Of a stretch of DNA of 64,000 nt, positions 24,581-45,987 are shown in pieces. Position 1 is the stretch's first letter. The number at the start of each line of letters is the position of its first letter. Under the pieces are notes generated by a model that saw only the letters and a program-made list of their open reading frames with translations, did no database searches and was not told the DNA's origin. Position numbers and translations under genes: made by a program. This DNA is from a virus (taxonomy: Duplodnaviria > Heunggongvirae > Uroviricota > Caudoviricetes): positions 83,787 to 147,786 of IMG/VR virus record IMGVR_UViG_3300027819_000007; one strand, 5' to 3'.

Positions 24581-26473
24581 TCATCCCACAGTGGGAACTG
24601 CTTCCATGAAGAGACTCAAACATGGGATCGCGTCAATCGTCTCACACAAGATTAACTTACCAAGGTCTCCGCTTTGAGTCGTCCTGAACTTAGTAGGACG
24701 TGGAGTAAACTTCGCCTCACTGAGAAGGTTGCCTAGCGTTTCTTCGTCTAACAGGGACTTATGTTCATCTCCAACGAGAAGGGAATTCAACTTCATGGCC
24801 TGGGTCTTGGCTTCCTCACATTCACTTTGCAGTTGGTCAAGAAATCCCAATGACTTCTCCTGATACTGAGTTGTAAGGAATTCCACGTCAGGAACAATGA
24901 TTCTTACCACTCCATCCGGACGAATGGCTCTCCGCAAATCTTTGAGGATGGCTAGTATCTCTTTGAAGGTAAAGTGCTCCAGGACATGAGATAGGAAGAA
25001 GCAGTTTACCACTTCCGTACCGAAGGGAATACCTTGTCGAAGGTCACATTGGGTGAATTTGTAGTTACTTTGTTGAGCATAGTTTTTCAGGTCCAAGATG
25101 TCCAAGTTATGCCACCCCTGGTGCAGCATACTCCAGGCACAGCCGATGTTAACCTTGGTCAAACCACCATCTTCAAAGTAGTGGGGGGGAAATTCTCCTT
25201 GCTCCGACTCCTGTTGAGTAACTACTTCATGTCCTGGAGGGAGGATACCCTGCCACCACTCTTTAGGTTTGATGGTAACACGAGTCAAATCTCCACTGTC
25301 TGGAGGATTGAAGTTGATCCCGTGATAGCCCCTTTTGCTGTAGGTAGCTAGGTCTTGCATAACACGAGGAAGCAATTGCTCCGGAATATGGTCCAACACT
25401 GCGATGCTTACTGCTAAGTCATAGGATTGTGCTAAGACAATTCCTTCACACAGGTCACCCAATGCCATTCGACTGGTGGCACGAGTAAGTTCACAGTGAG
25501 TGGAAATGTCGATCCCGAAGCAATCTACTCCTCTATCCTCTAACCGTTTGATGAGGTATCCTCGACCACACCCTAGCTCCAGAACACTTTGGGGTTTCCT
25601 CCTCAAAATATTCTGGACCGTCATCTCATGGCAGGGGAAGTCCATATAGAAGGGTTTGTAACCTCCACAAAAGCTACCTCCAGAGAAATATCGACGATCA
25701 AAACACTTTCTACGACCTTCTGACGTAAGAAGGAGGGATGGGACCGATTTCTCCCTAACCACATTTCCTTCGTAAGAGGCAGATTCAGTCCCATCCCCCT
25801 GTTTGCTTTTGGTAGTTTGGGTAATTTCCTTAGTAGTAGGGTTAGTTTCGTTTATACCGCCTTCAGGGGGGTTTCCTACCCCTTGGGTCGTATTACCATC
25901 CTCGGACGCGACCTGGACCGTTTTAGGGGTATTTACAAGGGTTTGGGGTTTGGAACACTCTATTAACATATCGGTTTCGTCTCCGGGCCTTGTTTGTGGA
26001 TTCTGGGTATATGGTGATACGATGATGTTTTCAAACCCCGCTTCGGAAAATATCTTGGTAGCCCATCTTGGAGACCATGCTGATTTGTGTGCATTTTCTC
26101 CATAGTCTTGTCCACCAAATAACATACTTCCCTCGTCCCCATCCCATTCCGGTTTTGCAAGAATGTATTTCATCTGGGCTTCGGTGTTGGGTACTACGAC
26201 CACCAGTTTTCCTCCTGGTTGCATGATTCGATGAATTTCTTTTAGAGTTTGCGTGACTAATCTCCAAGAGATATGTTCCAAACAAAAGATAGACAACACT
26301 ATTGGCCATTCATCATCTTTAATTGGCCAAGGAAACTCTTCAAAATTCACTACGAAATTGACTCTTTTGCCTTGACGTACATCTACATTGCAAGTGGTGA
26401 TTGGCTGTGGGTTGTCCCCACCACCAAGTTCGAGAACCTTTGAACCTTCCGGAAGATTGGTGAAACGAATCAT
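24581..26473 (-). CDS. multi-domain SAM-dependent methyltransferase (three class-I MTase-like modules)
   Basis: 630 aa. Three separate glycine-rich SAM-binding-like motifs: 'VLELGGGDNPQ...MQPGGKLVVVVP', 'VLELGCGRGYLIKRLEDRGVDCFGIDIS', and 'FLSHVLEHFT...IRPDGVVRIIVPD'. They are separated by a Thr/Gly/Asn-rich linker. Confidence 0.6.
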   Translation of the reverse strand: MIRFTNLPEGSKVLELGGGDNPQPITTCNVDVRQGKRVNFVVNFEEFPWPIKDDEWPIVLSIFCLEHISWRLVTQTLKEIHRIMQPGGKLVVVVPNTEAQMKYILAKPEWDGDEGSMLFGGQDYGENAHKSAWSPRWATKIFSEAGFENIIVSPYTQNPQTRPGDETDMLIECSKPQTLVNTPKTVQVASEDGNTTQGVGNPPEGGINETNPTTKEITQTTKSKQGDGTESASYEGNVVREKSVPSLLLTSEGRRKCFDRRYFSGGSFCGGYKPFYMDFPCHEMTVQNILRRKPQSVLELGCGRGYLIKRLEDRGVDCFGIDISTHCELTRATSRMALGDLCEGIVLAQSYDLAVSIAVLDHIPEQLLPRVMQDLATYSKRGYHGINFNPPDSGDLTRVTIKPKEWWQGILPPGHEVVTQQESEQGEFPPHYFEDGGLTKVNIGCAWSMLHQGWHNLDILDLKNYAQQSNYKFTQCDLRQGIPFGTEVVNCFFLSHVLEHFTFKEILAILKDLRRAIRPDGVVRIIVPDVEFLTTQYQEKSLGFLDQLQSECEEAKTQAMKLNSLLVGDEHKSLLDEETLGNLLSEAKFTPRPTKFRTTQSGDLGKLILCETIDAIPCLSLFMEAVPTVG

Positions 26474-28772: not shown

Positions 28773-29582
28773 CTACTCCATCTTTGGTTCTGCTCCTTGG
28801 AAGATCACTTCAGGACGATTGACTACCTTTCCAAATGGTGGCATCTCCACGATCTTCACATCACTCCGTTCGATCATCAAATCTGGATTGGTTCTTGCTT
28901 CGTGTTTAGTAGGCAAACTTTCCAACTCTTCACTAGTGAACTTTCTGGTGGTAACTTGCTTTTGTACAAAAGTTCCACGCTTGAAGAATGGTAAATAGTC
29001 ATTCCAATTGATACCACGACCAAATAACATCTCCTGCATTTCGGGACCATTCTTGTTGTAGAGTTCCTTGTGACTAAAAACGGATTGGGCTGCCATAGAA
29101 ATGGAGTTTCGAGTAGCATCCTGCTCCCGCCACAAGAATACGTTAACCCCTTCCACTATGTTGGGAACATTCCATACTCGACAATCGAAGTGAGCAATGG
29201 GTAAATTCATCAATGGAAATCTGGAGGGGACATGTTTGTTGAACCATCCCGTACACAAAGAAGACAACACTGATACCATCTTCTGAATTTTGCCATCGAA
29301 GAAGATTTGACTTTTGAAGTCGGTACTGTGCCAAGCCAAAGTGATTTCATCCGACTGCACGTATCCCATACAAGCATTGGTTTCTTTGACAAGGTAAATC
29401 GTGGTGTCAATCATAAGGGCAGAAAGTCGCTCATCGTAAGGACGTTCCATCCCCCTGGTCCAGTTGTGGAAGTTCTTTCCATCAAGACGAGCAAAAGCAG
29501 GGAGGAGAGGAATAAGTTTTCTTCTTGCTTCCATCCCTTCATAAAGCTTCATACGTTCACCAAAATCAGTTGTATCTGCCAT
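28773..29582 (-). CDS. Thg1-like protein (tRNA-His guanylyltransferase family, 3'-5' nucleotidyltransferase)
   Basis: 269 aa. 'FARLDGKNFHNWTRGMERPYDERLSALM' matches the Thg1/TLP N-terminal signature ('R.DG..FH.F......KP.D'). Lies immediately upstream of a four-tRNA cluster. Confidence 0.65.
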   Translation of the reverse strand: MADTTDFGERMKLYEGMEARRKLIPLLPAFARLDGKNFHNWTRGMERPYDERLSALMIDTTIYLVKETNACMGYVQSDEITLAWHSTDFKSQIFFDGKIQKMVSVLSSLCTGWFNKHVPSRFPLMNLPIAHFDCRVWNVPNIVEGVNVFLWREQDATRNSISMAAQSVFSHKELYNKNGPEMQEMLFGRGINWNDYLPFFKRGTFVQKQVTTRKFTSEELESLPTKHEARTNPDLMIERSDVKIVEMPPFGKVVNRPEVIFQGAEPKME

Positions 29583-29608
29583 GTTGTTCTCCTAAAGGTT
29601 AGTACCAG

Positions 29609-29678
29609 TTGCAGACCCCGGAGTTGAACCGGGAAAGAGAAACTTATGAGGCTTCTCCAGGAACCGTCCAAGTCTGCG
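29609..29678 (-). tRNA. atypical tRNA-like gene, anticodon CAU (Met/Ile2-type) with C1:A72 mismatch and shortened D-arm
   Basis: Manual fold gives acceptor 5' cgcagac / 3' gtctgca, anticodon stem gaagc/gtttc, loop cucauaa, variable ucuuu, and T-arm cccgg-uucaacu-ccggg. The D-region is only 16 nt. Confidence 0.4.
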
Positions 29679-29683
29679 ATCAA

Positions 29684-29768
29684 TGACCAGAGTGGGACTC
29701 GAACCCACAAGCCCATAAAGAGCATCAGATCTTAAATCTGATGTGTTTCCCAATTTCACCATCTGGTC
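29684..29768 (-). tRNA. tRNA-Leu (anticodon UAA), type II with long variable arm
   Basis: Acceptor gaccaga/ucugguc, 3-bp D stem, anticodon loop uuuaaga, 16-nt variable arm, T-arm guggg-uucgagu-cccac. Confidence 0.7.
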
Positions 29769-29794
29769 ATAGACTGTTCTCAAGGTTTAAAGAA

Positions 29795-29866
29795 TGGGTT
29801 CAGTTGGAATTGAACCAACAACCGAAGGATTATGAGTCCTTTGCTCTACCATTGAGCTATGAACCC
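29795..29866 (-). tRNA. tRNA-Met/Ile2 (anticodon CAU), canonical
   Basis: Acceptor ggguuca/ugaaccc, D-arm gcuc-aauggua-gagc, anticodon arm aagga-cucauaa-uccuu, T-arm guugg-uucaauu-ccaac. Confidence 0.75.
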
Positions 29867-29869
29867 AAA

Positions 29870-29940
29870 GGCAACCCGCAGGATTCGAACCTACATCTTC
29901 CTCCGGAAAGGAGGTTGTCCTACCGTTAGACGAGGGTTAC
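29870..29940 (-). tRNA. tRNA-Glu-like (anticodon UUC)
   Basis: Acceptor guaaccc/ggguugc (one G-U), D-arm gucu-aacggua-ggac, anticodon loop cuuuccg, T-arm guagg-uucgaau-ccugc. The A27:A43 mismatch and C37 are slightly atypical. Confidence 0.55.
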
Positions 29941-30974: not shown

Positions 30975-31562
30975 TCACTTCTCGTAAGAGCGAGAGGATG
31001 GATTTGGACCATCATTCAGTGTCACCACTGGTTTTGCTATTAAACTACTCTCGCAGATAGGCACTACAGGATTTGAACCTGTGACCATTGATATGTAAGA
31101 CCAATGCTCTACCCACTGAGCTAAGTGCCTATTGAGAACCAGAAGACTTCCCCAACAGAGGTCCATTACGTTCTGTCGTAATCTCTTCAAATGGATTGAA
31201 GCTTGACACGAATTCATTCGTAAAACCCTACCGATACTCCAGATCGCAACCCAAAGTAACCTTGTGGTAGGAATACCAATGAACCGTCCATTCCAGTTAT
31301 CATTCTTAGTATTACGTGAATCCAAAGGAATGGCTAACCTCACCAAATGAGCTTCACATTCTGTAATGGCATTGTCAAGGGATAAGGCTAACCCATCAAA
31401 GCGGTCTTCATATTTTGGAGGAAATATCTTCCACTTCCAGCCCCCACGAGGACTGTCACACTCTTCGTCAAAGTAGACTTCCGCATAGTAAGGACGTCTC
31501 ACAATGCCCCGAACCATGTTGCCTAGTACCCACTCGTCCGGTTCATGTTGTTGCCAGATCAC
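30975..31562 (-). CDS. hypothetical protein; C-terminal part overlaps tRNA-Val
   Basis: 195 aa ORF. Its start overlaps the stop of the SPFH gene (ATGA), implying coupling. The last ~50 codons run through the tRNA-Val sequence. Confidence 0.4.
   Translation of the reverse strand: MIWQQHEPDEWVLGNMVRGIVRRPYYAEVYFDEECDSPRGGWKWKIFPPKYEDRFDGLALSLDNAITECEAHLVRLAIPLDSRNTKNDNWNGRFIGIPTTRLLWVAIWSIGRVLRMNSCQASIHLKRLRQNVMDLCWGSLLVLNRHLAQWVEHWSYISMVTGSNPVVPICESSLIAKPVVTLNDGPNPSSRSYEK
31058..31130 (-). tRNA. tRNA-Val (anticodon UAC)
   Basis: Acceptor aggcacu/agugccu, D-arm gcuc-agugggua-gagc, anticodon arm uuggu-cuuacau-aucaa, T-arm acagg-uucaaau-ccugu. Lies inside the 3' part of ORF 30975..31562. Confidence 0.75.
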
Positions 31563-31564
31563 AA

Positions 31565-32407
31565 CTACTCCTTCTTGTTCACTACTGATTTGATGATGGG
31601 CATTCCATCATTGCCTGTGGGGACATACACCACGGCACCAGGATGATTTTTCAATGCCTCTACCCAAAGATAGCGAATGTAGTTATCTGTGAGAGTCCCT
31701 TGAATGATTTTCTGAGCATCGGCAATACCACTTGCTTCTGCCCGCTTCCGATCTGCTTCTAATTTTTCCTTACGGATGGTAAACTCCATTTGTTGTGCAG
31801 CCTGGTCCATTGCCAATTTTTGCTCGATAGCTTTTTGCACTACAGAAGGAAGATCAACATCTCTTAGCAAAACTCTTTCCACAATAATTCCATCAGCCTC
31901 CAAAGAAGATTTTGTTTCAGTGAATAAAGAGTTTTCTATCTTCTGACGATTAGCAGTGAAAAGATCTTCTGCTCGATAATTGGAAGTAGCTTCTCGAACC
32001 AAAGATCGAAATACAGGAACAATAAGCACTTGATCGTATCTCTCCCCGTACTTCTGGAAAATGGCAGGGGCATCTTTTGGTTTGATGGAATAAAGGAGGG
32101 ACACTTCCAAATGCACCCCTAGACCATCTTTCGTGGGAACATCCCCCTCTGCTTTGTATTCCCATGTTCGTATTGATATTTTATGAACGGATTTAAGTGG
32201 ATTGATCCAGTTAAATCCTTCCTGAATAGGGTGATCATCCACTGCTCCAAAAGTGGTTAGAACACCCACATGACCAGCGGGAATGGTAGTCCAACTCTTC
32301 ATCAATATGATAAAGAGCAAAAGAAACACGGATGCCACACCAAATCCCAAACATCCAAAATAGAAATTTCCCTTTTCCATACCAAGCTCCTTTATGGTTT
32401 TTGCCAT
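31565..32407 (-). CDS. SPFH/band-7 (prohibitin/HflC-like) membrane protein
   Basis: 280 aa. N-terminal TM helix followed by an SPFH core ('VPTKDGLGVHLEVSLLYSI', 'YDQVLIVPVFRSLVREATSNYRAEDL', 'LRDVDLPSVVQKAIEQKLAMDQAAQQMEF..KEKLEADRKRAEA'). Confidence 0.75.
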   Translation of the reverse strand: MAKTIKELGMEKGNFYFGCLGFGVASVFLLLFIILMKSWTTIPAGHVGVLTTFGAVDDHPIQEGFNWINPLKSVHKISIRTWEYKAEGDVPTKDGLGVHLEVSLLYSIKPKDAPAIFQKYGERYDQVLIVPVFRSLVREATSNYRAEDLFTANRQKIENSLFTETKSSLEADGIIVERVLLRDVDLPSVVQKAIEQKLAMDQAAQQMEFTIRKEKLEADRKRAEASGIADAQKIIQGTLTDNYIRYLWVEALKNHPGAVVYVPTGNDGMPIIKSVVNKKE

Positions 32408-33126
32408 CTTATCATGAGAACCATCAAATGAATTTCATCTGGTTCCCCTTCATTTCCCACCCGTGCTTCCATCACATCCCCTATTTCAATAGCTTTTGAG
32501 ATTCCAAATTCGTCAACTACAATTCCTGCTGTCTCCGGATTCATGTGGAAGTCTCCTTCCTTGGGACTACCCCATGTAACCACATCCATTGTCAGGAGAG
32601 CAGTTCCTCCTGGTTTAAGGACTCGTTTGGCCTCTTTTACGCATTGTGCATACTTACTTGAATGAACATGCTCCAGGACGGAACAGTTGACATAGCGGTC
32701 AAAAGTCTCATCAGGAAAAGGTAGTTCACACATATCACCTTGGGTTTGCTTGATGTTATCAAAACCAATCTGGTCAATGGTAACTTGAGCCTTCTTGATG
32801 AACTCTGGATTGATTTCCAAACAATCTACCCAATGAGTTCTAGTTGCCATAGCAAACTTCAAAATACTCCAACCACTTCCTATGTCCAGCACTCGATGAT
32901 GTTGTTGAAAATCTCCTTCCCTCAATATCCAAGGCCACTCTCGTTGTCTACTCCAGTGCATAGGAGAGGGAGTATTGGCGAAAACTACGTTAGCCAAAGC
33001 TCCTCGTGCAAAAATACAGGAAATAGGACAAATCATTTCATAAGACAGAAGTTCTCGAATAAGAGGATAATCCTCATCCAAACATGGACCTGCTAGAGCA
33101 GCATAAGAGGTTGGTTTAATGATCAT
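32392..33126 (-). CDS. class I SAM-dependent methyltransferase
   Basis: 244 aa. 'VLDIGSGWS' and 'LKPGGTALLTMD' motifs. Confidence 0.6.
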   Translation of the reverse strand: MIIKPTSYAALAGPCLDEDYPLIRELLSYEMICPISCIFARGALANVVFANTPSPMHWSRQREWPWILREGDFQQHHRVLDIGSGWSILKFAMATRTHWVDCLEINPEFIKKAQVTIDQIGFDNIKQTQGDMCELPFPDETFDRYVNCSVLEHVHSSKYAQCVKEAKRVLKPGGTALLTMDVVTWGSPKEGDFHMNPETAGIVVDEFGISKAIEIGDVMEARVGNEGEPDEIHLMVLMIRWQKP

Positions 33127-33127
33127 G

Positions 33128-33952
33128 TCAAATTCCTGAAATTCGTTTACGTTCTTCTACCAAGTTCCATGGATTGGGAGAAGGTACTTCCCACTTTGGT
33201 TCTTCCGGAGCACTTGAGATATGAGTAATCCTCCACATCCCTTCATTTCCGAGGGGAGAAAGTTCCTGGGGAGTATCCCATACTCGATGGTCTACCATGT
33301 GACAAACAGCAATTTCCTGATCGACTTCTAGTTTGTATCCTAACATTTTTGCCTGAGCCATCTTGCTGGTTACGGGCCAGCAATGACAATGATCTGCTCT
33401 TTCATCCACTCCATTGATAATATCGAAAAAGTCTCTGGTGATACTTACGTAAAAGGTCTCCCACTCTCTTGGAACCCAAGGCCACTTGGGAATCAAGGGA
33501 GGGGGGATTTTCCAGGTAGAGAAGTCATCAACCAGAGTTGGTTTAGGTGTTTCGTAAACAATGGCTGATCCGGAGATAAGAGTCTTGTCATCAAACTGTT
33601 TATGAAGATGGTCCCATGCCCTGATCCAGTAGGGAGGCAGCCAGGTATAATCACTGACAAAGACAATCCTTTCTCCTCTGCAATGGAGGAGAGCACTGTT
33701 CCAGGCGTTGCACAATCCGCCTTTCACATTGGAGTAAAACTTGTTTTTACTTTTGCGATAACAAGTAAGTGGTAATCCCATTGAGAGGATTCTTTTCTCA
33801 ACAACTCCTCGTTCAACTCTACCAGGATAATCATCGATGACAATGAATTCCCACTCGATTGTTTGATCGGTTCCTTGCAAAGTTTCTTGCAAGGAATGAC
33901 AAAGAATGTCAAATCCTCCAGGTCGGTAGCTGCACAGCACCAAAGAAATCAT
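33128..33952 (-). CDS. putative glycosyltransferase (GT-A fold)
   Basis: 274 aa. N-terminal 'ISLVLCSYRPGG' and a 'FIVIDDYPG' DxD-like region, as in family-2 glycosyltransferases. Confidence 0.45.
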   Translation of the reverse strand: MISLVLCSYRPGGFDILCHSLQETLQGTDQTIEWEFIVIDDYPGRVERGVVEKRILSMGLPLTCYRKSKNKFYSNVKGGLCNAWNSALLHCRGERIVFVSDYTWLPPYWIRAWDHLHKQFDDKTLISGSAIVYETPKPTLVDDFSTWKIPPPLIPKWPWVPREWETFYVSITRDFFDIINGVDERADHCHCWPVTSKMAQAKMLGYKLEVDQEIAVCHMVDHRVWDTPQELSPLGNEGMWRITHISSAPEEPKWEVPSPNPWNLVEERKRISGI

Positions 33953-34494
33953 GACTTGTTTTCTCTCAATTTCTTCAAAGCTCTGGACAGAGCCTTTTCT
34001 GCTTCCACTCGATTGATGTAAGAACGAGCATAGTTACTATGGGACAGATTGTCGTTCCATTTCCCATTGTTCCGACCGTCCACAATATATCCATCAAGGT
34101 ACTGAAATAGACTCAATGCAATACACCATTCTCCGTGAACATGGTAATCTTTTCTGGTTGTCAATCCTATCCTAACGACGGGGAGTTTTTTGGAATCGGG
34201 GAAAATCCAAAAACATCGTTCCATACCAGCACAAAACCAAGTAGCTTCATCTCCAGAACCCAATCCCAACGCACATGGGGGGCCAGGCATGACTTTGAGG
34301 TTAGCGAGATAGCGTTGTCCTTCTGCTTCATCTTGAAGATACTTCTCCTCCAGCCAATCTGAGTATACTAAGCGAGATTCCCAATCGTCAGGATGTTGGT
34401 CAAAATGTTGTTCCCATTCCCAAGCATACATGGTAGTGAAATCTCCTCCCGTGGTCCATTTCCAGGTGTCCACTACGAAGGTGATGAAACTCAT
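33949..34494 (-). CDS. protein with 'RLVYSDWLEE' repeat-companion-like motif
   Basis: 181 aa containing 'ESRLVYSDWLEEKYLQDEAEGQRYLANLK'. Confidence 0.45.
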   Translation of the reverse strand: MSFITFVVDTWKWTTGGDFTTMYAWEWEQHFDQHPDDWESRLVYSDWLEEKYLQDEAEGQRYLANLKVMPGPPCALGLGSGDEATWFCAGMERCFWIFPDSKKLPVVRIGLTTRKDYHVHGEWCIALSLFQYLDGYIVDGRNNGKWNDNLSHSNYARSYINRVEAEKALSRALKKLRENKS

Positions 34495-34506
34495 CTAACA
34501 AATCCT

Positions 34507-35757
34507 TTATTCGATGATTTTAGGTATTGGAAGAGGAACTATAAATTTTCCTCGATACCCTTTCTTCTTGAGGTTCTTCATCAACTCATCGGCAATGTGC
34601 CAGGAGAGAAGAAGGACATACTCTGGTTGGTCATCTTCAAAAATACATTCTTGATCGTAAATGGGAACTCGCGTCCCAGGTAAGTAATGTCCCAACTTGG
34701 GAGACTGTGGGACTTCCACAATGCAGTCCAGAATGTTTTCATCTAACCCTAGGAAGTGAACTAAAGTAACTGCTCGGCTAGGTGCTCCTACTCCGTAAAG
34801 TCCACTCTCCATTGTGTGCTTGGCTAGCAGTTGGAATAGTTCCATCTTGGCTCTTGCTACTCGTTGACGGAAAGTAGTCCACACATCTTCTGTAAAGAAT
34901 GCCTTTTCTTCATCAAAAAGAGACATCCATTGAGAAGGACACTTGTGATGATCATAAGTAGCCTCTTTCTTCTGAGCATAGACGCGGAGACTTCCTCCAT
35001 GAGTGGGAATCTTCTTGACGTAAGTAATTTCCAACCCATGCTGGTCGAAGAGATATTTCAAGCTGGTGAGGGAATAAAAACGTCTATGTTCGTGATACAA
35101 ACAATCATATTGCAAGTTCTCTATCAGTGAAGGGAGGTAGTGGTTTTCACAAATAAAGACCCCATCATCACTCATCAATCTCCTGATATTTTCCACTACC
35201 TCATTGATGTTTGGCATGTGAGCAAAACAGTTTGTACAAGTGACTACATCAGCTTTCCCGATATTGTTCACGATCTCATCGACCACTTTGGAGGAGAAGA
35301 ACTTGTTGATGGTAGGAATACCTTGCTGTTTGCTCTCCTCTGCGGCTCCTGTCGGTTCGATGTTGATACAGTAGAATCCTGCTTGGTGAAAGTTGGATAG
35401 TAAATTTCCATCGTTGCCGCCTAAATCTACAATCACATCCCCTTTCCCAAGATGGGGGAAGAGAAAGTCTACCTCTTGAAACAACTCCTTGAAGTTATCC
35501 TTGAGGATTTTGGTTGTGGAACTACGATAAGCATATTCTTTTGGGAAGAGAATCTCTGGATCAACTTCTACGGAAAGTTGAACTAACTTGCAGTGTTGAC
35601 ACTCTAGCAATTCTGTAGGATAGAATACCTCTTCAGGAGGGAGCGGTTCTCCTATCTCCCTCATCGTATTGACAGGAGGAAGCCACCCTACATGGAATAC
35701 TGACTCCGGAAAGCGAGTAGCACACATCTGACATTGAGTAACTTGTGTTGCTTGCAT
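34507..35757 (-). CDS. NDP-sugar C-methyltransferase (TylCIII-like: Zn-binding N-domain + SAM MTase + C-terminal domain)
   Basis: 416 aa. N-terminal 'CQMC...CQHC', 'VIVDLGGNDGNLL', and a C-terminal domain typical of hexose C-methyltransferases. Confidence 0.6.
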   Translation of the reverse strand: MQATQVTQCQMCATRFPESVFHVGWLPPVNTMREIGEPLPPEEVFYPTELLECQHCKLVQLSVEVDPEILFPKEYAYRSSTTKILKDNFKELFQEVDFLFPHLGKGDVIVDLGGNDGNLLSNFHQAGFYCINIEPTGAAEESKQQGIPTINKFFSSKVVDEIVNNIGKADVVTCTNCFAHMPNINEVVENIRRLMSDDGVFICENHYLPSLIENLQYDCLYHEHRRFYSLTSLKYLFDQHGLEITYVKKIPTHGGSLRVYAQKKEATYDHHKCPSQWMSLFDEEKAFFTEDVWTTFRQRVARAKMELFQLLAKHTMESGLYGVGAPSRAVTLVHFLGLDENILDCIVEVPQSPKLGHYLPGTRVPIYDQECIFEDDQPEYVLLLSWHIADELMKNLKKKGYRGKFIVPLPIPKIIE

Positions 35758-35758
35758 A

Positions 35759-36757
35759 TTAGCATTCCTTTCTTTCCAAAGGGTGTTCCAGATACCAAAG
35801 GATTGTCTTTCTTAACCCTTCTTCTAACATTACTTTTGGTTCCCAACCAAGTGCTTTTAATTTGGAAATATTAGGACAACGATAAGGAGTGCTTCCACTA
35901 GGGGATTGAGTATGAATAATCTCTCTTACTGGCTTGTTCATGATTAAGGCTATCCTCAACAACAAGGATTCCATACTCACCACTTCATCGGTTCCCACAT
36001 TGTAGATATTCCTATGCTCACCTTTTTCCAGGATAGTAAGAATTCCACTTACCGCATCATCAACATAACAAAATGCTCTGGTTTCCTTCCCACTCCCTTG
36101 AATCTTCTTTGCGGTACGGGGGTTAGATACTTCTCGTATCAGTTGAGGGATTACATGATCCCATCCCGCGTCGGGGCCGTAGCAGTTATGTGGTCTAATG
36201 ATTAACATCTTGTTGAAATCTTCACTTTTGTAGTGAAGAGCAAACATCTCCGAGATGATCTTGCTAGCCGCATAACTGTACCGTGGATTCTGAGGATAAG
36301 GAATCGTTAGGGGAACTTCTTCATGAGCAGGATAAACAGGAGGAGTTTGATAAACCTCCGATGAGGAGGCAATGAGGAGTTCTCCTACTCCATGCTCCAC
36401 ACAAGCATCCATGACGTTGATGATCCCTTTGGTGCCTACTTCCAACACACGGGATGGGTAGTCGTAGAAGTTTTTCGTCCCATTGATAGCAGCAAGGTGA
36501 ATCACTGCATCATGTCCTTTTACTGCTGTTTTGACTACGTTATAGTCACAAATATCCCCATAGAAGAAACACACATCCTGTCCATTTAATCTACTGCGGG
36601 AGCCACGGGAGTAGTTGTCGAAGGTACTGACAGCATGACCTTGTTGAAGTAGTGTTTTGACCAACGGGGTTGCGAGTGAGCCACAACCCCCGGTAATAAG
36701 ATAGCGTTTCATTAACGAACCCCCGCTGCAAAATCCTTTTCGGAAATGAACCTCCAT
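35759..36757 (-). CDS. NAD-dependent sugar epimerase/4,6-dehydratase (SDR family)
   Basis: 332 aa. 'ITGGCGSLATPLVKTLL' Rossmann motif and the 'YAASKIISEM' YxxxK catalytic motif. Confidence 0.7.
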   Translation of the reverse strand: MEVHFRKGFCSGGSLMKRYLITGGCGSLATPLVKTLLQQGHAVSTFDNYSRGSRSRLNGQDVCFFYGDICDYNVVKTAVKGHDAVIHLAAINGTKNFYDYPSRVLEVGTKGIINVMDACVEHGVGELLIASSSEVYQTPPVYPAHEEVPLTIPYPQNPRYSYAASKIISEMFALHYKSEDFNKMLIIRPHNCYGPDAGWDHVIPQLIREVSNPRTAKKIQGSGKETRAFCYVDDAVSGILTILEKGEHRNIYNVGTDEVVSMESLLLRIALIMNKPVREIIHTQSPSGSTPYRCPNISKLKALGWEPKVMLEEGLRKTILWYLEHPLERKEC

Positions 36758-37089
36758 GCAGCCCGTAGAGCATGGGACATATCCTCACTGCTGCCAGACT
36801 GAGGAAGTCCAAATTGTTTGGAGCAAGCCTCTCCGATATTCCCTACCATAATGTAATCGTCTGCACGAATATTAAGTTTCAATCCATGAAGAAAGTAATC
36901 TTTGGAAAGGAAAGATTGCCCCAGGAAGGATACTCGCTTGTGCCAATCAGGAAGTTGGCAAAATACGTGCATGTTCCCACAGATTCCAACAATATCCCCT
37001 TGTTGTCGAAGCTCCTCCATAGATTCCAAAGTAACAGGACCATTGGAGATAACTAAAGTTTCGTCAACGCCAAACGCCCAACATCGCAT
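36712..37089 (-). CDS. hypothetical protein (sugar-pathway accessory?)
   Basis: 125 aa ORF inside the sugar cluster; no secure motif. Confidence 0.35.
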   Translation of the reverse strand: MRCWAFGVDETLVISNGPVTLESMEELRQQGDIVGICGNMHVFCQLPDWHKRVSFLGQSFLSKDYFLHGLKLNIRADDYIMVGNIGEACSKQFGLPQSGSSEDMSHALRAAWRFISEKDFAAGVR

Positions 37090-37092
37090 AAT

Positions 37093-37737
37093 TTATTCCT
37101 CACATGGGATAATTTTGTATTTCTTCCCGCTAATCGTAATTTGAGCATGATGCTTAGGGTGACAGGTCAACGCCCGGATAACTATTTTGGATGAATCTGG
37201 GATAGATATTTCCTCACAAAGAGGAGATTTTTTGTAGTATCTTCCTTCCCCTTTATTTTGAGGAGTAGAAGGAATCTCCTCCCCGTTCAAAATCCTTGGA
37301 ACCCATTTGATGAAGAGTTCCTTGAGCAGTTGATGAGAAATTTTTACCAAATCTCCCGATGTGTGATGATTCTCTATAGGGAATTTCTTGACCTCAATGA
37401 TAGGCCCGGTATCATACTCCGGAGCCATGTAGTGGAGGGTAGCTCCAAACTCCTTCTCTCCGTTGATGATAGCATGGTAAGCAAGGTTCCTTCCTTTATA
37501 CTCTGGGAGGGGGGCAGGATGGAAGTTGAGCCAACGGTAAGGAATAGTAAACTCACTAGAAGGAATCTTGTGAGTGGCCAGAAAATTCACTCCTAAGTCA
37601 TAGGGGGGAATCTTGGACCAGTCCTTGATGTGGTAATCATTACACCCTTCAAAGACCACTTCTCCACCAATCCAACGTAGATGATGATACATCTCCCATC
37701 CAAGATCGGTATTGGCAAGGTAAAGAACTCTGGTCAT
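37093..37737 (-). CDS. sugar N-formyltransferase (formyl_transf_N family)
   Basis: 214 aa. 'LNFHPAPLPEYKGRN...HYMAPEYDTGPII' matches the formyltransferase catalytic motif (N.H.S.LP...G, His, Asp). Confidence 0.65.
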   Translation of the reverse strand: MTRVLYLANTDLGWEMYHHLRWIGGEVVFEGCNDYHIKDWSKIPPYDLGVNFLATHKIPSSEFTIPYRWLNFHPAPLPEYKGRNLAYHAIINGEKEFGATLHYMAPEYDTGPIIEVKKFPIENHHTSGDLVKISHQLLKELFIKWVPRILNGEEIPSTPQNKGEGRYYKKSPLCEEISIPDSSKIVIRALTCHPKHHAQITISGKKYKIIPCEE

Positions 37738-38180
37738 TACTCCCTCTCTACCAGAAATCGAATATCATGTAGGGCAATTTGGAAGTCTAATTCTGTAGGA
37801 TTCTTGACAATGTTGATGGCTCGATCATCCACCAAGGCAGCAAAGAAAGGCTTCCCCTGACCAGCGTAGATAGAGTCATAACTGAACCCATGCTGGTCTA
37901 ACCATTCTTTAACACGAAGAGTTAGCTTATCTACTGTATCTCCCTCTTCTCGACCAAACATATCTACTTTGGTTCTGGTAGTGAAGATCATTACCGAGTA
38001 GGTTTCACTCAACTTTTTGGTGAACTCCACTGCTCCTGGTCTGGGTTCCCCGAAGTGATCAGAACCCTTCCAGGTATCGTAGTGAGCTAATACTCCATCT
38101 ACATCCAAGGCAATAGTCTTTTTGTGCTTCTTGTCCATTTCCTTTGCTTTCTCTAATATTTCCTGATTGGTCATCACCAT
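37737..38180 (-). CDS. HAD-superfamily phosphatase/5'-nucleotidase-like
   Basis: 147 aa. 'IALDVDGVLA' matches HAD motif I. Confidence 0.5.
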   Translation of the reverse strand: MVMTNQEILEKAKEMDKKHKKTIALDVDGVLAHYDTWKGSDHFGEPRPGAVEFTKKLSETYSVMIFTTRTKVDMFGREEGDTVDKLTLRVKEWLDQHGFSYDSIYAGQGKPFFAALVDDRAINIVKNPTELDFQIALHDIRFLVERE

Positions 38181-39334
38181 CCTCCCCGGACTGCATCGAT
38201 GACTTGTTGAACATCCTCGTCTGACAAATTTTCATGACAGGGGAGGCAAATACTCTTTTTGCTAAACTCCCTCTGTCCCACTAAGTCTTCTCGTATCCCT
38301 CCAAAAACAGGATTCTTGTCGATCCGGGAGCAAATGATAGAACAAGGAATCCCCTTTTCTTTCATCTTCTGTACAAAGTCATCTCGCCAGTTTACTTTCA
38401 TGGCAAAGGCATAGTACGCATGGGACCAACTACCAGGAACTTCGATAAATTCGATGTCCTTCACGGTATCCAATTCTTCTCGGTACTGTTTTGCTATTTG
38501 CTGTCTTCTTGTCAGCCGTTGAGGGAGAGTATGAAGGTTTCCTATCCCCAAAGAAGCAGCCAGATCATTGAGGTGGTATTTGTACCCGACTTCTTGTAAT
38601 GAAAAATCCCTTTCTCCAAGTGGTCCAATTTCAGCACCACGGGGGATTCCAAACCATCGTCGATGGATGGCATCTTCTTTATCCCATGTGATGTCAATAC
38701 TGCTGCAAATACACCCCCCATCACCCGTGGTCAACAGTTTAGTAGATTGAAAGGAGAAACAACAAAATCTTGACCAGTGAGTTTTCCCTATCAAGTCTTG
38801 TTGATAGACAGCTCCCAAGGCATGAGCAGCATCTTCAATGATGGAAGGTCGTTCGTTGAATAATTCACTCTCTCGCTCGATTGCATAGTTGATGTCTTCC
38901 ATGTAACAAGGAAGACCCGTCCAGTGAACGGGAATAACCGCTTTGGTTTTGGGAGTTAGTTTCTTCTGTACACTTTCCGGACACAAGTTCCCGGTGAAAG
39001 GATCGATGTCAGCAAAAATAGGAGTAGCCCCACAATAGAGAATTGCCATCCCGGTAGCCACAAAAGTTTGTGGGGGAAGAATAACCTCATCACCCCTTTC
39101 CACTCCGGATAAAACCAAGGCAAGGTGAAGAGCAGAGGTGCCACTATTTACCGTAACAGGGTTCCACAGACCAAACTTATTCAACCCCTTCTCAAACTCC
39201 TTAACTCGCTCTCCTTCACTGAGCCTACCACTATCCAGGGTTTCCTGGACCAGTCGCTTACTTTCTTCCGAGATGTGAGTGTAAAATAATTCCATTAAGA
39301 CACCGTGGGAGGAGTGTGTTTGGTAATAGTCCAC
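38174..39334 (-). CDS. DegT/DnrJ/EryC1/StrS-family PLP-dependent sugar aminotransferase
   Basis: 386 aa. 'GDEVILPPQTFVATGMAILYCGATPIFADID' and 'FSFQSTKLLTTGDGG' (Lys-containing) motifs. Confidence 0.75.
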   Translation of the reverse strand: MDYYQTHSSHGVLMELFYTHISEESKRLVQETLDSGRLSEGERVKEFEKGLNKFGLWNPVTVNSGTSALHLALVLSGVERGDEVILPPQTFVATGMAILYCGATPIFADIDPFTGNLCPESVQKKLTPKTKAVIPVHWTGLPCYMEDINYAIERESELFNERPSIIEDAAHALGAVYQQDLIGKTHWSRFCCFSFQSTKLLTTGDGGCICSSIDITWDKEDAIHRRWFGIPRGAEIGPLGERDFSLQEVGYKYHLNDLAASLGIGNLHTLPQRLTRRQQIAKQYREELDTVKDIEFIEVPGSWSHAYYAFAMKVNWRDDFVQKMKEKGIPCSIICSRIDKNPVFGGIREDLVGQREFSKKSICLPCHENLSDEDVQQVIDAVRGGW

Positions 39335-39903
39335 TTATCGTCGCTGAAGGAAATATCTACCTCTCGCTGCCACTGAATGTCCCTTCTATCCACATAAGAA
39401 TATCCAATAACAGGAACGTCTTGTGGGAGAGGGTCATCAGGAGAAATATTCTTGTCGAAGAATATTTTACACACATCTTCCAAACCATTTACATCACTAG
39501 AAATTTCACCTGCTCGTTTCTTACAATGTTTGACGAAATGTTCCAATTCAATTTCATACCTTATCTTCTGTACAGTCTTTCGATGATCTTCATTACTCTG
39601 TTCATAAGAAACAGCTTTTTGTTCAGAAAGGTCTGAATAATCAACAGTGAAGGATGGGTTATTGGATATAGCATCATGGAAAGACAAGGTTCTGATTACT
39701 ACCTTAGTCTTGCTGGAATTGTATCGTCCACCAATAATATTATAATACTTCTTCTCCTCATTCCGAACGAGTATCTGTTGGCAACCATCCCAATACCCCT
39801 CTGCACGATGAACGAAGTGAATGTCCTCATTTCCTACAGAGACTTCTAGTTCTCCTGAAGGGTCTTCTTTCTGCAATCTTCTAATCAACTCTTTGGTTTT
39901 CAT
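39295..39903 (-). CDS. hypothetical protein
   Basis: 202 aa ORF. Confidence 0.4.
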   Translation of the reverse strand: MKTKELIRRLQKEDPSGELEVSVGNEDIHFVHRAEGYWDGCQQILVRNEEKKYYNIIGGRYNSSKTKVVIRTLSFHDAISNNPSFTVDYSDLSEQKAVSYEQSNEDHRKTVQKIRYEIELEHFVKHCKKRAGEISSDVNGLEDVCKIFFDKNISPDDPLPQDVPVIGYSYVDRRDIQWQREVDISFSDDKWTITKHTPPTVS

Positions 39904-40100
39904 TATGCCGATTCTCCCACTTCATCTTCATATTCTACTTCGATTTCCACAATCTCCGCTCCGATGCGTTTCCCTGCTTCTCCCTGATAGTGTTGAGTGA
40001 CTTCCTCAAAGGTGCCAAATACTTCTACCTCTTCATAGTTCCAGCCTCGGTCACTACACCAAAACTCATTGGAAACCGTATCGAAAATACAGAATTGCAC
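39903..40100 (-). CDS. hypothetical small acidic protein
   Basis: 65 aa ORF. Confidence 0.3.
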   Translation of the reverse strand: MQFCIFDTVSNEFWCSDRGWNYEEVEVFGTFEEVTQHYQGEAGKRIGAEIVEIEVEYEDEVGESA

Positions 40101-40111
40101 TCAGGAATCTC

Positions 40112-40654
40112 CTAACGAGAAAATTCCGATCTTGCTTGATTGATGTTACTCCTGTGCTGTTCATTGATTTCTTGAGTAAGGATTCTGTCCTTGGGTATTG
40201 AAGAAGCCTTTTCTTTAGCTTCCTGATGAATTTTATCGACTCTTTCTTTGCATACTGAGTAGAACTCTCCCTCTAACTCCGAAAGAGCGGAGAAGGGCAA
40301 CCCCTCTACTTTACGGTGACACTCATAATCCTTCCCTTTTGGAACCCAGAAGGTATGATACTCCGGACGGTGACATTGAAAAACATTGTAGAGATTATTG
40401 ATGAATTCATCAAAACGGTTATAAATTACCGTTGATCCATCGACAGAATAAGAAGCATGAAAGAAGAACTCTTCCGCAGCAACTTGATAGCGGTCCAGAA
40501 TCTCCTGGACCTGGACAGACACCTGCTCCTTCCCATTCCAATAGGAGAACATTTCCGGTTCTACTTCTGAGGAAAGTGAGAGAGAAGAGATGGATGGAAT
40601 GGCCACCAGAGATGAAATAACCGTACCAATAAATTGCCGACGATTCTGATCCAT
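40112..40654 (-). CDS. putative Tat-secreted protein
   Basis: 180 aa. N-terminal 'NRRQFIGTVISSLVAIPS' resembles a twin-arginine signal peptide. Confidence 0.45.
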   Translation of the reverse strand: MDQNRRQFIGTVISSLVAIPSISSLSLSSEVEPEMFSYWNGKEQVSVQVQEILDRYQVAAEEFFFHASYSVDGSTVIYNRFDEFINNLYNVFQCHRPEYHTFWVPKGKDYECHRKVEGLPFSALSELEGEFYSVCKERVDKIHQEAKEKASSIPKDRILTQEINEQHRSNINQARSEFSR

Positions 40655-40665
40655 TTTACTTCCCT

Positions 40666-41118
40666 TTATCTTGAAGAAAGAATTTCATCACACTTCCGAA
40701 TGTACTCACTATCCTTGGTTCGTTGGTTCTCTTCTAGCCAGTCCGCAATGATGGGTAGAGGTGTATCTTGAGTCAAAGGAATGCTGTCCATGATCCAGTC
40801 ATACCGTTGGTGGAAACCATTTCCTAGAACGGGATGCTTGTAAGTGAAGCCAGCACATTGCCAACAGAATCTCATGTAAAGTCCAGAAACTCCATGAATG
40901 GCTACACCATCACCTGATCCACCCATCCTTGTTTTACACCCCCTACAGTACATCCAGTTCTCTAAGTCTCCAGAATGGATATTGTAAGTGTTCAATCCTG
41001 ATTCATAGATTGTTCTCTGTTCGGAAGCAATAGACCCCATCACCACAGTTCCCAAGGGAGGAGTGGATAAGGCTCCTGATAGAAATCCAATCGAAATTCC
41101 AAGAGGAAGTTGACTCAT
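40666..41118 (-). CDS. hypothetical protein with zinc-ribbon and C-terminal 'ADWLEEN' motif
   Basis: 150 aa; 'CRGCK...CWQC' and 'PIIADWLEENQRT'. Confidence 0.4.
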   Translation of the reverse strand: MSQLPLGISIGFLSGALSTPPLGTVVMGSIASEQRTIYESGLNTYNIHSGDLENWMYCRGCKTRMGGSGDGVAIHGVSGLYMRFCWQCAGFTYKHPVLGNGFHQRYDWIMDSIPLTQDTPLPIIADWLEENQRTKDSEYIRKCDEILSSR

Positions 41119-41474
41119 TCTTTCTTCCCTTCCTTTGTCTTCTCGATCATGCTATCCACCCAGAAGATCTGGATACCAATAACTTCCTTGGTATCAATAC
41201 TCCTCATGAGAGCCATGATCTCACCTTTGCCAGGAATGACAATAGGATCAGCATAGGCACTTTCATTCTTCCAGTAGGCTTCCAGGAAGTCTCCATCCTG
41301 ATAGTAATGAACGAAAGGTCTAATCATAGAAGGTTCCTTCCCTTCTCCACTGAGTTTCTTGAGGTACTCCAGAAAGGTTTCGTTGTTCATCTTTCTATCC
41401 ATTTCCACAAGTTGTAAATCACAATGCAGGATAAAACAGCTGGCCACAAAGGAATAGTAAGAATAGAAACCCAA
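41115..41474 (-). CDS. hypothetical protein
   Basis: 119 aa ORF. Confidence 0.35.
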   Translation of the reverse strand: MGFYSYYSFVASCFILHCDLQLVEMDRKMNNETFLEYLKKLSGEGKEPSMIRPFVHYYQDGDFLEAYWKNESAYADPIVIPGKGEIMALMRSIDTKEVIGIQIFWVDSMIEKTKEGKKE

Positions 41475-41583
41475 AATCTCAAACTACCCACAGGTATCCG
41501 TATGAAAACGAACTCTCCAACGTGGTATCCAATTATCACATAGAGCATCGTTATGGGGATAAGGAAAAGGTAATCTTCTACCA

Positions 41584-41865
41584 TTAGTTGATCCCCGAAG
41601 TCCCTTTACCGAAGTAGGTATGTGGATACTGTGTTCCCGGTGTGGGTTTGGCCTGCCCCATTTGTTGAAGCATCTCATCTGGGATACGATGGATAGCTAA
41701 AACATGGTCCAAGTCCACTCCCTCATAGAACTCTCCACGAGTAAGACGCATACTCTTCCGTTGGGACCAGTCTTGAACTATTCTTTTCGCTTCACTAGAA
41801 GGATAGATGCACTGGATGAATGCTCCCCCTTGCATGATGAAACGGAGACATACTTGTGGTTCCAT
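41584..41865 (-). CDS. hypothetical protein
   Basis: 93 aa ORF. Confidence 0.3.
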   Translation of the reverse strand: MEPQVCLRFIMQGGAFIQCIYPSSEAKRIVQDWSQRKSMRLTRGEFYEGVDLDHVLAIHRIPDEMLQQMGQAKPTPGTQYPHTYFGKGTSGIN

Positions 41866-41868
41866 AAG

Positions 41869-42060
41869 TTATTCCTTATTCAATTCCTTGGGATCAGGTT
41901 GCTCCCATTCCCCTTCCCACCAAGGAGGAGGGGTATCACAATGAGGACATGGAGTATCCTCATACATAAACTTACCGCACACATCACAGACCCAGGTATC
42001 GTCACTGTCTTCATCCTCATCGTCGAAGTCTGGGTCATCTAACTCATTGGGAGTTTTCAC
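41869..42060 (-). CDS. small zinc-ribbon protein
   Basis: 63 aa; 'CDVCG...CPHC'. Confidence 0.35.
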   Translation of the reverse strand: MKTPNELDDPDFDDEDEDSDDTWVCDVCGKFMYEDTPCPHCDTPPPWWEGEWEQPDPKELNKE

Positions 42061-42404
42061 AGGAATTCATAGCCTCGTCTTTGGGTAGTTGTATCATCCT
42101 TGGTGGTAGTTTCCTCCTTGATAGGGAATGTGAAATTGTCAAATTCCCCCTGTAACTCATCACGTCGAAGTTTCAATTCCTCAATGATATGATTACGGAG
42201 GTAGGCTACTTGGTGCTCAGACAAGTAATCCTCTACTCGATATTCACCGTTAAACCCATTTTTGATGCTAAGGTGACACCCATTTTCTAACATAGTCAGG
42301 TTTTTCTTTACGTGGAAGAGAAGTGAGTAAAGTTCGTCGATTCTCCCGCACACGTTCCTCAGTGTATCAAATTCTTCCTTCGTCATGAAATCATTTCCTT
42401 CCAC
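42057..42404 (-). CDS. hypothetical protein
   Basis: 115 aa ORF. Confidence 0.35.
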   Translation of the reverse strand: MEGNDFMTKEEFDTLRNVCGRIDELYSLLFHVKKNLTMLENGCHLSIKNGFNGEYRVEDYLSEHQVAYLRNHIIEELKLRRDELQGEFDNFTFPIKEETTTKDDTTTQRRGYEFL

Positions 42405-43435
42405 AGTTCAAGGTACTTTTGTTTGATGAGATCCCAAGTATACAATTCTGCCACTTCTCTTGCTTGTTTTCCTCTAGCTTCCAAATCCCAGATTTTCTTA
42501 GCTTCATCTATCTTCTCTGCTAGTTGATCTTCACTACAAGCGTCTACTGTATGGGAGGGAGGAACTAAATCTACAGCACCCGCTCCACGGGAACAAATAA
42601 CAGTACGGGAATGGGCTTGGGATTCTAACACTTCACAATTAAATCCTTCGGTGGCAGCAGGGCAACAGAAAAGGGAGATCTCATTGTAGAACTCACTTAC
42701 ATCATTAACCCAACCCTTAACGATAATGTTGCCCCCTCCTAGTTGGGTAATGAGTTGTCTCCCCCATATGGAGGTAGAATCCCTTCCCCCTAGAATAAGG
42801 GTAGCGTCTTGGTAGTTCAGTTTCTTCCAGGCTTGTAGTAAGTAAACTACCCCTTTGTCAGCTCCGAAACTTCCAAGATACCCAACAGTAAAACGGTCTG
42901 GGAGGGATTTGACTTCTGGTGGAATATTACAGCCATGATGAATTATGCGTATGTCCTTGTTCTCAAAATCTGGACCGTATTGCTGAACAGTTCTCTTCGG
43001 TACACTTCCAGGCACCACAATTACGTCGGCAAGTCGGTATCCCTCAATGTATCGTTTCCATAGTTCCGGATCGGTGAGATGACTAAGGTTGAATCCAAAT
43101 CCCAACTTTTCGTGTTCTCGTTTGGATACTTCTACGGAGTGTGCCGCTATAGTCATGACCACAATGGAACCATTGCGTTTTAACACATCTACTGTTTTTG
43201 GCCAAGTTCCGCTGTAAAAGTGGCAAAGTTTTGGTCTTATCACAAAGAAATCTTTTTTGCAACAAGCAACATCATCCCATTTCCACGGTTCTCCACCACC
43301 TCCACCTAGTTGGTCTCTGTCCCATACCTCACATGGACCAAGAGTGGAGAAGGCTTCACTCTCATGTTTGGTGACAATCCCCCCTCCAGTGGGGAGTGAT
43401 ATCTTATCGTGCGTGATGTAGAAGTTGTGAGGCAT
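42383..43435 (-). CDS. glycosyltransferase family 1 (GT4-like)
   Basis: 350 aa. 'EGFNCEVLESQAHSRTVICS' is the E-x7-E motif of retaining GT-B transferases. Confidence 0.65.
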   Translation of the reverse strand: MPHNFYITHDKISLPTGGGIVTKHESEAFSTLGPCEVWDRDQLGGGGGEPWKWDDVACCKKDFFVIRPKLCHFYSGTWPKTVDVLKRNGSIVVMTIAAHSVEVSKREHEKLGFGFNLSHLTDPELWKRYIEGYRLADVIVVPGSVPKRTVQQYGPDFENKDIRIIHHGCNIPPEVKSLPDRFTVGYLGSFGADKGVVYLLQAWKKLNYQDATLILGGRDSTSIWGRQLITQLGGGNIIVKGWVNDVSEFYNEISLFCCPAATEGFNCEVLESQAHSRTVICSRGAGAVDLVPPSHTVDACSEDQLAEKIDEAKKIWDLEARGKQAREVAELYTWDLIKQKYLELWKEMIS

Positions 43436-43785
43436 CAGCTTCCCGATTGAACGTGAAATGTAGTAATTTGCCCACTAGAAATATTGCCGCTGTAAAGCAC
43501 TCCAGCAAAATGGCCGCTTCTAATTGCACCACTCGTTACTTCCATTGGAGATGATCGATATTTGGCATAACGATTCATGCCAGGAACATAACCTTCTTCA
43601 ATCAGCTTAGCTCCATTCTCTCGATGGTTCTCTTTCAGCCAGTCAGAATAAGCTGCACGAAGAGCTTCGTCATTAGGATCGTCTTGTAGTGCTTTGAGGA
43701 AGATCCTTTCCTGGGAACTCATAAGCAGTTCCACGAAGAAGGTATTCTCCTCGATCTTGTTATAGTTGAAATCTTCAAAGCTCAT
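43435..43785 (-). CDS. repeat-companion-like 'AAYSDWLKEN' domain protein
   Basis: 116 aa; 'ERIFLKALQDDPNDEALRAAYSDWLKENHRENGAKLI'. Confidence 0.45.
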   Translation of the reverse strand: MSFEDFNYNKIEENTFFVELLMSSQERIFLKALQDDPNDEALRAAYSDWLKENHRENGAKLIEEGYVPGMNRYAKYRSSPMEVTSGAIRSGHFAGVLYSGNISSGQITTFHVQSGS

Positions 43786-43796
43786 GATTGGTCCTC

Positions 43797-44322: not shown

Positions 44323-44334
44323 TCGTTGTAACTC

Positions 44335-45364: not shown

Positions 45365-45372
45365 AGGTGGAC

Positions 45373-45927: not shown

Positions 45928-45987
45928 GGTTTGATTGCTCCTTTCCTAGTGGTGTTTGAACCTTACTCTAAGGTAGTATTAATTCTG

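Follow-up and report, generated by a model that had tools for sequence, protein, structure and literature searches.

A Thg1-like protein gene at the tRNA array of a phage

Thg1-like proteins (TLPs) are, to our knowledge, the only polymerases that work in the 3'-5' direction. The present contribution deals with a TLP gene and the tRNA genes that adjoin it on a 64-kb stretch of DNA, referred to as the window, which is part of the 163.5-kb metagenomic contig ORJL010676767.1 (GCA_900218215.1). The window belongs to a large uncultured phage: a major head protein is encoded at 3409-4860 and a portal protein at 60852-63596, a gene resembling those of tail fibres is also present, and almost every gene is located on one strand. 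The open reading frame (ORF) at 28773..29582 on the minus strand codes for the TLP, a protein of 269 amino acids that was identified by matches to Pfam, to PHROG, to the Bacillus thuringiensis TLP (BtTLP) and by its fold. It starts with an ATG at 29582-29580, and a Shine-Dalgarno-like AGGAG at 29589..29593 (minus strand) can be read directly from the sequence 6 nt 5' of this codon. In the direction of transcription the tRNA array comes first and is followed, after a gap of 25 nt that contains the AGGAG, by the ATG of the TLP gene, all on the minus strand. The DNA examined for tRNAs comprised ~78 kb, namely the window and about 8.5 kb and 6 kb past its ends; the only tRNAs present all lie within one 1.5-kb stretch, and the TLP gene is the immediate 3' neighbour. 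An initial annotation of this DNA had described four tRNAs that adjoin and follow the ORF on the same strand. ARAGORN calls all four of them on the minus strand, but in transcription they precede the TLP gene.

In this genome the TLP gene and the tRNAs do lie side by side, and coincidence alone is an unlikely explanation; by our own rough estimate its probability is ~2% for a particular named gene. A scan for promoters and terminators yielded matches that were not above the shuffled expectation; the 'terminators' were arms of tRNAs, and no other was found in the layout of array and TLP gene. Judging from the spacing, the TLP gene is probably co-transcribed with the tRNA array.

Family, predicted active site and fold of the TLP

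The Thg1/TLP signature by which the initial annotation had recognised the ORF is present, with RLDGKNFH at residues 32-39 and RPYD at residues 47-50, and a check of the family identity by profile search and alignment confirmed the assignment. The protein matches the Pfam family Thg1 (PF04446) with 94.2 bits (gathering threshold 29.2 bits; E = 7.8e-27) over profile positions 2-130 of 130, and it matches PHROG 4717 ('tRNA-His guanylyltransferase') with E = 1e-81. The Thg1 C-terminal domain (PF14413) scored 15.3 bits against a cutoff of 26.3 bits, and some close homologues carry a match to it. A search of the TLP against the NCBIfam profiles gave no match. The best relative of solved structure is BtTLP (4KGK, E = 4.8e-39), far ahead of an archaeal TLP (4.5e-11) and of the eukaryotic Thg1 proteins (3e-8 to 5e-6).

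Alignment with BtTLP places the predicted catalytic carboxylates at D34, D78 and E79, corresponding to D30, D75 and E76 of BtTLP. The latter are equivalent to D29, D76 and E77 of human THG1 (hTHG1), the three carboxylates of the active site (PMC3701042). Other residues that could be mapped are E15 (E12 in BtTLP), R32 (R28), H39 (H35), S77 (S74), K101 (K99), R135 (R131) and R152 (R147). M163 aligns with M158 of BtTLP, a position that is occupied by methionine in TLPs and by asparagine in eukaryotic Thg1 (PMC3701042). All mapped residues are invariant in alignments of 16 and of 36 homologues.

An AlphaFold2 model of the protein was obtained with a mean predicted local distance difference test score (pLDDT) of 93.4 and a predicted template modelling score (pTM) of 0.88. 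In a Foldseek search against the PDB all 32 significant (top) matches were Thg1 or TLP structures; the best was 4KGM (E = 4e-22) with a template modelling (TM) score of 0.88, and the model aligns with BtTLP over ~259 columns. The TM scores to eukaryotic Thg1 structures were about 0.7. Because the E value to BtTLP is far ahead of those to eukaryotic Thg1 proteins and because the TLP-type methionine (Met163) is present, we conclude with very high confidence that the ORF product is a Thg1-family enzyme of the bacterial TLP type and not a tRNA-His guanylyltransferase of the eukaryotic type. The gene is intact, and its product is presumably active.

The nearest named homologues, with 60-64% identity, are bacterial and come from Myxococcota and from a metagenome-assembled genome (MAG) of Patescibacteria. 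The 64%-identical TLP (P0018) of a MAG labelled 'Patescibacteria group bacterium' is located on a 160.9-kb contig, and its source may be a mis-binned large phage rather than a bacterium of the Candidate Phyla Radiation (CPR).

tRNAs and tRNA-like elements of the cluster

The five tRNAs listed in the initial annotation are exactly those called by ARAGORN, but only three of them are confident by Rfam. These are a canonical type II tRNA-Leu(UAA) at 29683-29769 (60.5 bits), a canonical CAU tRNA of the elongator Met or Ile2 type at 29794-29867 (77.4 bits; hereafter CAU#2) and a canonical tRNA-Val(UAC) at 31056-31131 (73.9 bits), all encoded on the minus strand like the other elements described in this section. 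As annotated here, these three genes span 29684..29768, 29795..29866 and 31058..31130, respectively, slightly less than the ARAGORN calls just given. The tRNA-Val lies ~1.1 kb further from the cluster, as had been described, and upstream in the direction of transcription. The two remaining ARAGORN calls are an atypical tRNA-Glu(UUC) at 29870-29940, which reaches a moderate Rfam score of 41.3 bits, and a tRNA-like element with a CAU anticodon at 29608-29678 (CAU#1), which has no Rfam tRNA match and scores best, with 17.3 bits, against tRNA-Sec. A sixth element at 30989-31054 is absent from the earlier list of tRNAs and was not called by ARAGORN; it matches the Rfam tRNA model with 43 bits and is located immediately 3' of tRNA-Val. 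Its acceptor stem of 7 bp is perfect, its D and T arms are complete, and its anticodon arm consists of a 4-bp stem and a GUGA tetraloop of the GNRA type, so that 4 nt replace nine loop positions and no anticodon is present. This element might be a decayed tRNA, or it might serve as a decoy or as a processing signal. Three of the six elements of the cluster are thus non-canonical.

CAU#1 has an acceptor end of the initiator type (C1·A72, A73), a degenerate D arm and an anticodon stem without the three G-C pairs. Bacterial initiator tRNA requires C1·A72 for its identity. In an alignment with what we take to be the sequence of Escherichia coli tRNAfMet, and with CAU tRNAs of phages, CAU#1 has the CGC...GCAAC acceptor end and the T arm in common with the E. 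coli initiator. Since acceptor end and T arm match in this way, the C1·A72 mismatch is an identity feature of the initiator type and not damage. As its D arm is degenerate and its anticodon stem lacks these G-C pairs, the function of CAU#1 is nevertheless doubtful. CAU tRNAs with a similar 1:72 mismatch are also present in the TLP-bearing phage loci L029, L031 and L035 of our collection.

The tRNA-Glu combines a C73 discriminator with C37, an A·A pair that tops the anticodon stem and a U2·G71 wobble. Its C32 and G38 could pair, which would shrink the anticodon loop to 5 nt. Anticodon-loop variants that evade nucleases have been reported for other phage tRNAs, and this tRNA-Glu may be such a variant.

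A 195-amino-acid ORF at 30975-31562 (minus strand), which public gene finders also predict (8021-8608 in L013), spans tRNA-Val and the tRNA-like element next to it; its 3' third is probably not coding. Sub-threshold matches (20-45 bits) to the Rfam family 'Plastid-ycf2 5'UTR' (RF04354) at 29794-29866, 31059-31128 and 29609-29677 on the plus strand, antisense to three tRNA genes, were rejected as artefacts, as this model seems to pick up the antisense of tRNAs. ARAGORN draws 8-bp acceptor stems with a U-1:A73 pair for four tRNAs. This pair was considered as a signal for RNase P or the TLP and was dismissed: U-1 is present in 103 of 155 phage tRNAs and is the usual preference of bacterial RNase P.

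tRNA genes in the vicinity of other viral TLPs

The initial annotation had suggested that the enzyme and its neighbours form a self-contained tRNA module. This notion found no support when 74 non-identical viral TLP loci were compared, each with up to 10 kb of flanking sequence on either side and with tRNAs predicted by ARAGORN. A tRNA was located within 10 kb of the TLP gene in 24 of the 74 loci and within 1 kb in only eight, and 50 loci had none within 10 kb. The density of tRNAs was flat over 0-10 kb (~0.08-0.27 per kb, ~0.116 overall) and showed no peak near the TLP gene, with 0.08 per kb in the two bins nearest to it. At the 24 tRNA-bearing loci the TLP gene was not significantly closer to a tRNA than other genes in the same 20 kb (mean percentile 0.41, Wilcoxon p = 0.08), in a rank test that is biased in favour of the TLP by its central position and in which the control covers these 20 kb. 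A modest regional enrichment of tRNAs compared with whole genomes could therefore still exist.

The closest homologue (P0002, 69% identity) is without a nearby tRNA: in locus L014 none lies in the ~6 kb upstream and 2.6 kb downstream, and in locus L016 none in the ~2.3 kb upstream and 6 kb downstream. No tRNA is present within 4 kb of the TLP genes of the cultured phages Bcp1, Kalah2, CcrColossus and GAP32. On the statistics of the 74 loci and these four phages we rejected a conserved synteny of TLP and tRNA genes, and the adjacency is particular to the present genome and not a conserved module. The tRNAs that are nearest to viral TLPs belong to many isotypes.

Mismatches in the acceptor pairs 1-3 were found in only ~10 of 155 tRNAs near viral TLPs, and several of these are mis-folds by ARAGORN. 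A 1:72 mismatch occurs in five further CAU tRNAs of this set, CAU#1 of the window included; within the window only the initiator-like CAU#1 has one.

Recurrent neighbours of viral TLPs

Clustering of 1,179 ORFs from 76 viral TLP loci revealed that the neighbourhood of the TLP is highly variable. The neighbour that recurs most often, an RNA ligase (PF09414 with a PF21189 OB domain), is present at 8 loci according to BLAST and at ~10 according to hidden Markov model searches. It is mostly located just upstream on the strand of the TLP gene, with 2 and 23 bp between its end and the TLP in loci L030 and L036, respectively, and is one gene away from the TLP in the closest homologue. Next in frequency are genes for NUDIX proteins (7 loci), a sugar-nucleotidyltransferase (5), TnpB (5) and NAPRTase (4), and in Kalah2 a polynucleotide kinase gene is located three genes downstream of the TLP. 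Viral TLPs are linked more often to RNA ligase genes and to salvage genes for nicotinamide adenine dinucleotide (NAD) than to tRNAs. This linkage fits the theme of RNA repair and NAD salvage as counter-defence in large phages that was described by Iyer et al. (PMC7824862).

Several features of these loci may be mentioned in their own right. In L030 (4509-8702) and L036 (8845-11031) the RNA ligase, the TLP, a tRNA with a CUA anticodon (designated 'Pyl' by ARAGORN) and NAPRTase form a compact cluster on the same strand; the amber-suppressor tRNA is a hint that these phages may recode stop codons. Genes of the TnpB/IS605 OrfB type, with a Cas12f1-like TNB domain, lie 0.3-3 kb from the TLP in L023, L050, L056, L082 and L096; they suggest that the TLP resides in a mobile, often rearranged accessory region. 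In the window itself, long series of sugar- and methyl-transfer genes are found at ~24581-26473 and 32392-47022 (minus strand). They comprise several class I methyltransferases (one of them a double-domain protein of 630 amino acids), a DegT/DnrJ aminotransferase, a formyltransferase, an NAD-dependent epimerase/dehydratase and two glycosyltransferases, and look like a phage-carried pathway of nucleotide-sugar modification.

Discussion

TLPs of phages are a kind already known. By tblastn the family was detected in 164 of 50,697 GenBank phage records, mostly under the labels 'tRNA-His guanylyltransferase' or 'putative Thg1'; examples are 201phi2-1, CcrColossus, GAP32, Atu_ph07, the Lak phages and many Bacillus herelleviruses, and at least 595 viral contigs in IMG/VR encode a TLP. 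Thg1 has been listed by Iyer et al. in 2021 among the RNA-repair enzymes of jumbo phages that restore nucleotides at tRNA 5' ends (PMC7824862). Publications already cover the family, its occurrence in phages and the hypothesis of tRNA repair; the locus therefore leaves existing knowledge unchanged and adds one more well-preserved viral TLP to the hundreds of large phages that carry one. What it does offer is a compact cassette in which six tRNA or tRNA-like genes are accompanied by the enzyme and which might lend itself to joint expression and assay.

The most likely role of the protein, which we favour with moderate confidence on the basis of its homology with BtTLP and archaeal TLPs, is the template-dependent repair of tRNA 5' ends. 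The enzyme would activate the 5'-monophosphate end of a tRNA with ATP or GTP, as its homologues do, and would then add nucleotides in the 3'-5' direction, with the 3' strand of the acceptor stem as Watson-Crick template. In this way tRNAs that are short of 5' nucleotides would be rebuilt. The TLP would be expressed from the tRNA transcription unit and would act generally on tRNAs of the phage and/or the host rather than as a dedicated partner of the four adjoining tRNAs. It would then be part of a translation-maintenance and RNA-repair set of large phages that comprises their own tRNAs, RNA ligases, kinases and CCA-adding enzymes. That tRNA is the substrate and that the phage benefits from the reaction is what we assume.

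Several points weigh against this assignment. The lysine that is conserved for the activation step (K43 of BtTLP according to our reading of the alignment) corresponds to an invariant arginine, R47, in the clade of the phage protein. No RNA ligase, kinase or CCA-adding enzyme that could complete a repair pathway is encoded in the window and ~14 kb beyond its ends, the spacing is the sole basis for the assumed co-transcription, and our search of the literature turned up no phage TLP that had been studied experimentally. Moreover, we know of no bacterial defence system or phage process that removes nucleotides from the 5' end of tRNAs. Retron Eco2, Cas12a3 and HEPN-MNT hit the 3' strand or the tail, which is the template of a TLP and not the strand that it rebuilds: the cut made by Retron Eco2 is located 6-7 nt upstream of CCA (PMC12916289), and nucleases that target the CCA tail likewise attack the 3' side (PMC12851939). 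The suggestion of the initial annotation that the TLP serves to counter host tRNA nucleases is reasonable and has already been published as a hypothesis (PMC7824862).

Other functions have to be considered. If the main substrate were not tRNA, the enzyme might repair or activate other RNA 5' ends, for instance on cleaved RNAs together with an RNA ligase, or might form 5'-adenylylated or guanylylated cap-like ends, and the adjacency to tRNAs would be incidental. Thg1-family enzymes are reportedly discussed among non-canonical capping enzymes in one paper. The dominance of RNA ligase and of genes of nucleotide and NAD metabolism, rather than of tRNAs, in the neighbourhood of viral TLPs would agree with such a function, as would the two thirds of loci (50 of 74) in which no tRNA was detected within 10 kb. 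We nevertheless consider it unlikely, since the acceptor stem of tRNA is the site of action of every TLP characterised so far (PMC3701042, PMC4820378), the full TLP fold including its C-terminal part has been kept and the gene presumably belongs to a tRNA transcription unit here. A true tRNA-His guanylyltransferase would add G-1 to the tRNA-His of phage or host with C73 as template and would thereby secure the charging with histidine during infection. The databases label the family in this way, a tRNA-His is located 330 nt upstream of the TLP in L004/L024, and BtTLP can indeed add G-1 opposite C73 (PMC3701042). This function is quite unlikely for the present protein, which is of the TLP type and not of the eukaryotic Thg1 type; the many isotypes among the tRNAs nearest to viral TLPs also speak against it. 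We rejected G-1 addition to tRNA-His for two reasons. ARAGORN found no tRNA-His in the ~78 kb that were covered, and in each of the three cases in which a tRNA-His gene lies near a viral TLP its sequence already includes G-1 opposite C73, as in bacteria, so that processing by RNase P should suffice.

The tight position of the TLP gene beside a cluster in which half of the elements are non-canonical, its probable co-transcription with them and the unusual C73 of tRNA-Glu could also point to a dedicated maturation or editing of the aberrant adjoining tRNAs. Their 5' ends would be rewritten after trimming by a nuclease, as in amoebozoan mitochondria; C1·A72 would be converted to U1-A72, for example, or G-1 would be added opposite C73 of tRNA-Glu. 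Against this stand the rarity of acceptor mismatches near viral TLPs, the restriction of the other 1:72 mismatches to CAU tRNAs of the initiator type, the lack of conservation of the adjacency and the fact that no nuclease partner for 5' trimming is evident. A 'repair' of C1·A72 would, in addition, abolish the initiator identity. We regard dedicated editing as very improbable and rejected 5' editing of mismatched tRNAs on the grounds that mismatches are rare and that C1·A72 is a hallmark of initiators; the idea that the enzyme fixes the mismatched tRNA of the cluster is likewise unlikely, as C1·A72 with A73 is normal in bacterial initiator tRNA. More speculatively, the TLP could be functionally coupled to the co-transcribed, partly aberrant tRNAs of the phage, whose 5' ends would be rebuilt or remodelled, or could counter an undescribed host immune nuclease that trims tRNA 5' ends. 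Such a coupling may involve the addition of G-1 opposite C73 of tRNA-Glu or the processing of the initiator-like and the anticodon-less RNAs. Either version is distinctly improbable; if true, a viral 3'-5' polymerase would for the first time have a demonstrated biological role.

Comparison with known systems

Bacterial TLPs are among the closest known systems. BtTLP (4KGK/4KGM) and the TLP of Myxococcus xanthus have the fold (TM 0.88), the three carboxylates and the arginine and lysine residues for triphosphate binding in common with the phage protein, which also contains the WRxxDxxKNS motif and the TLP-type methionine of BtTLP and other bacterial TLPs. It differs from BtTLP by ~25 additional residues at the C terminus, by R47 in place of Lys43 and in that it is encoded by a phage, within what is probably a tRNA transcription unit. 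The phage proteins of PHROG 4717, such as those of Pseudomonas phage 201phi2-1 ('putative Thg1'), Bacillus phage Bc431v3 (gp143), CcrColossus (gp300) and GAP32 (GAP32_147), show 35-52% identity and likewise stem from large phages; the four cultured phage loci inspected have no tRNA within 4 kb of the TLP, whereas the present gene abuts a tRNA array. A close genomic relative of this phage was not found in IMG/VR with flanking genes as probes, of which the Band_7 protein gave no match and a neighbour of 149 amino acids gave two weak partial ones.

Eukaryotic Thg1 proteins (human THG1L and those of yeast and Candida albicans) belong to the same superfamily and use the same two-metal 3'-5' chemistry. 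They add a non-templated G-1 opposite A73 of tRNA-His, which they recognise via its GUG anticodon. The protein of the window is much closer to TLPs (E = 5e-39 versus 1e-6 to 1e-8; TM 0.88 versus ~0.7). The closest analogy to the idea of a tRNA module is provided by the 5'-editing TLPs in the mitochondria of Amoebozoa (Dictyostelium, Acanthamoeba), which are template-dependent and act on the organelle-encoded tRNAs of a small genome. In those systems most tRNAs are mismatched in the first three acceptor pairs, whereas such mismatches are rare here and at related phage loci. The Pnkp/Rnl1 system of phage T4 likewise represents a phage-encoded restoration of damaged tRNA, and genes for RNA ligase and polynucleotide kinase recur near viral TLPs. 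T4 Pnkp/Rnl1 mends the anticodon-loop breaks made by PrrC, whereas a TLP would rebuild missing 5' nucleotides of the acceptor stem.

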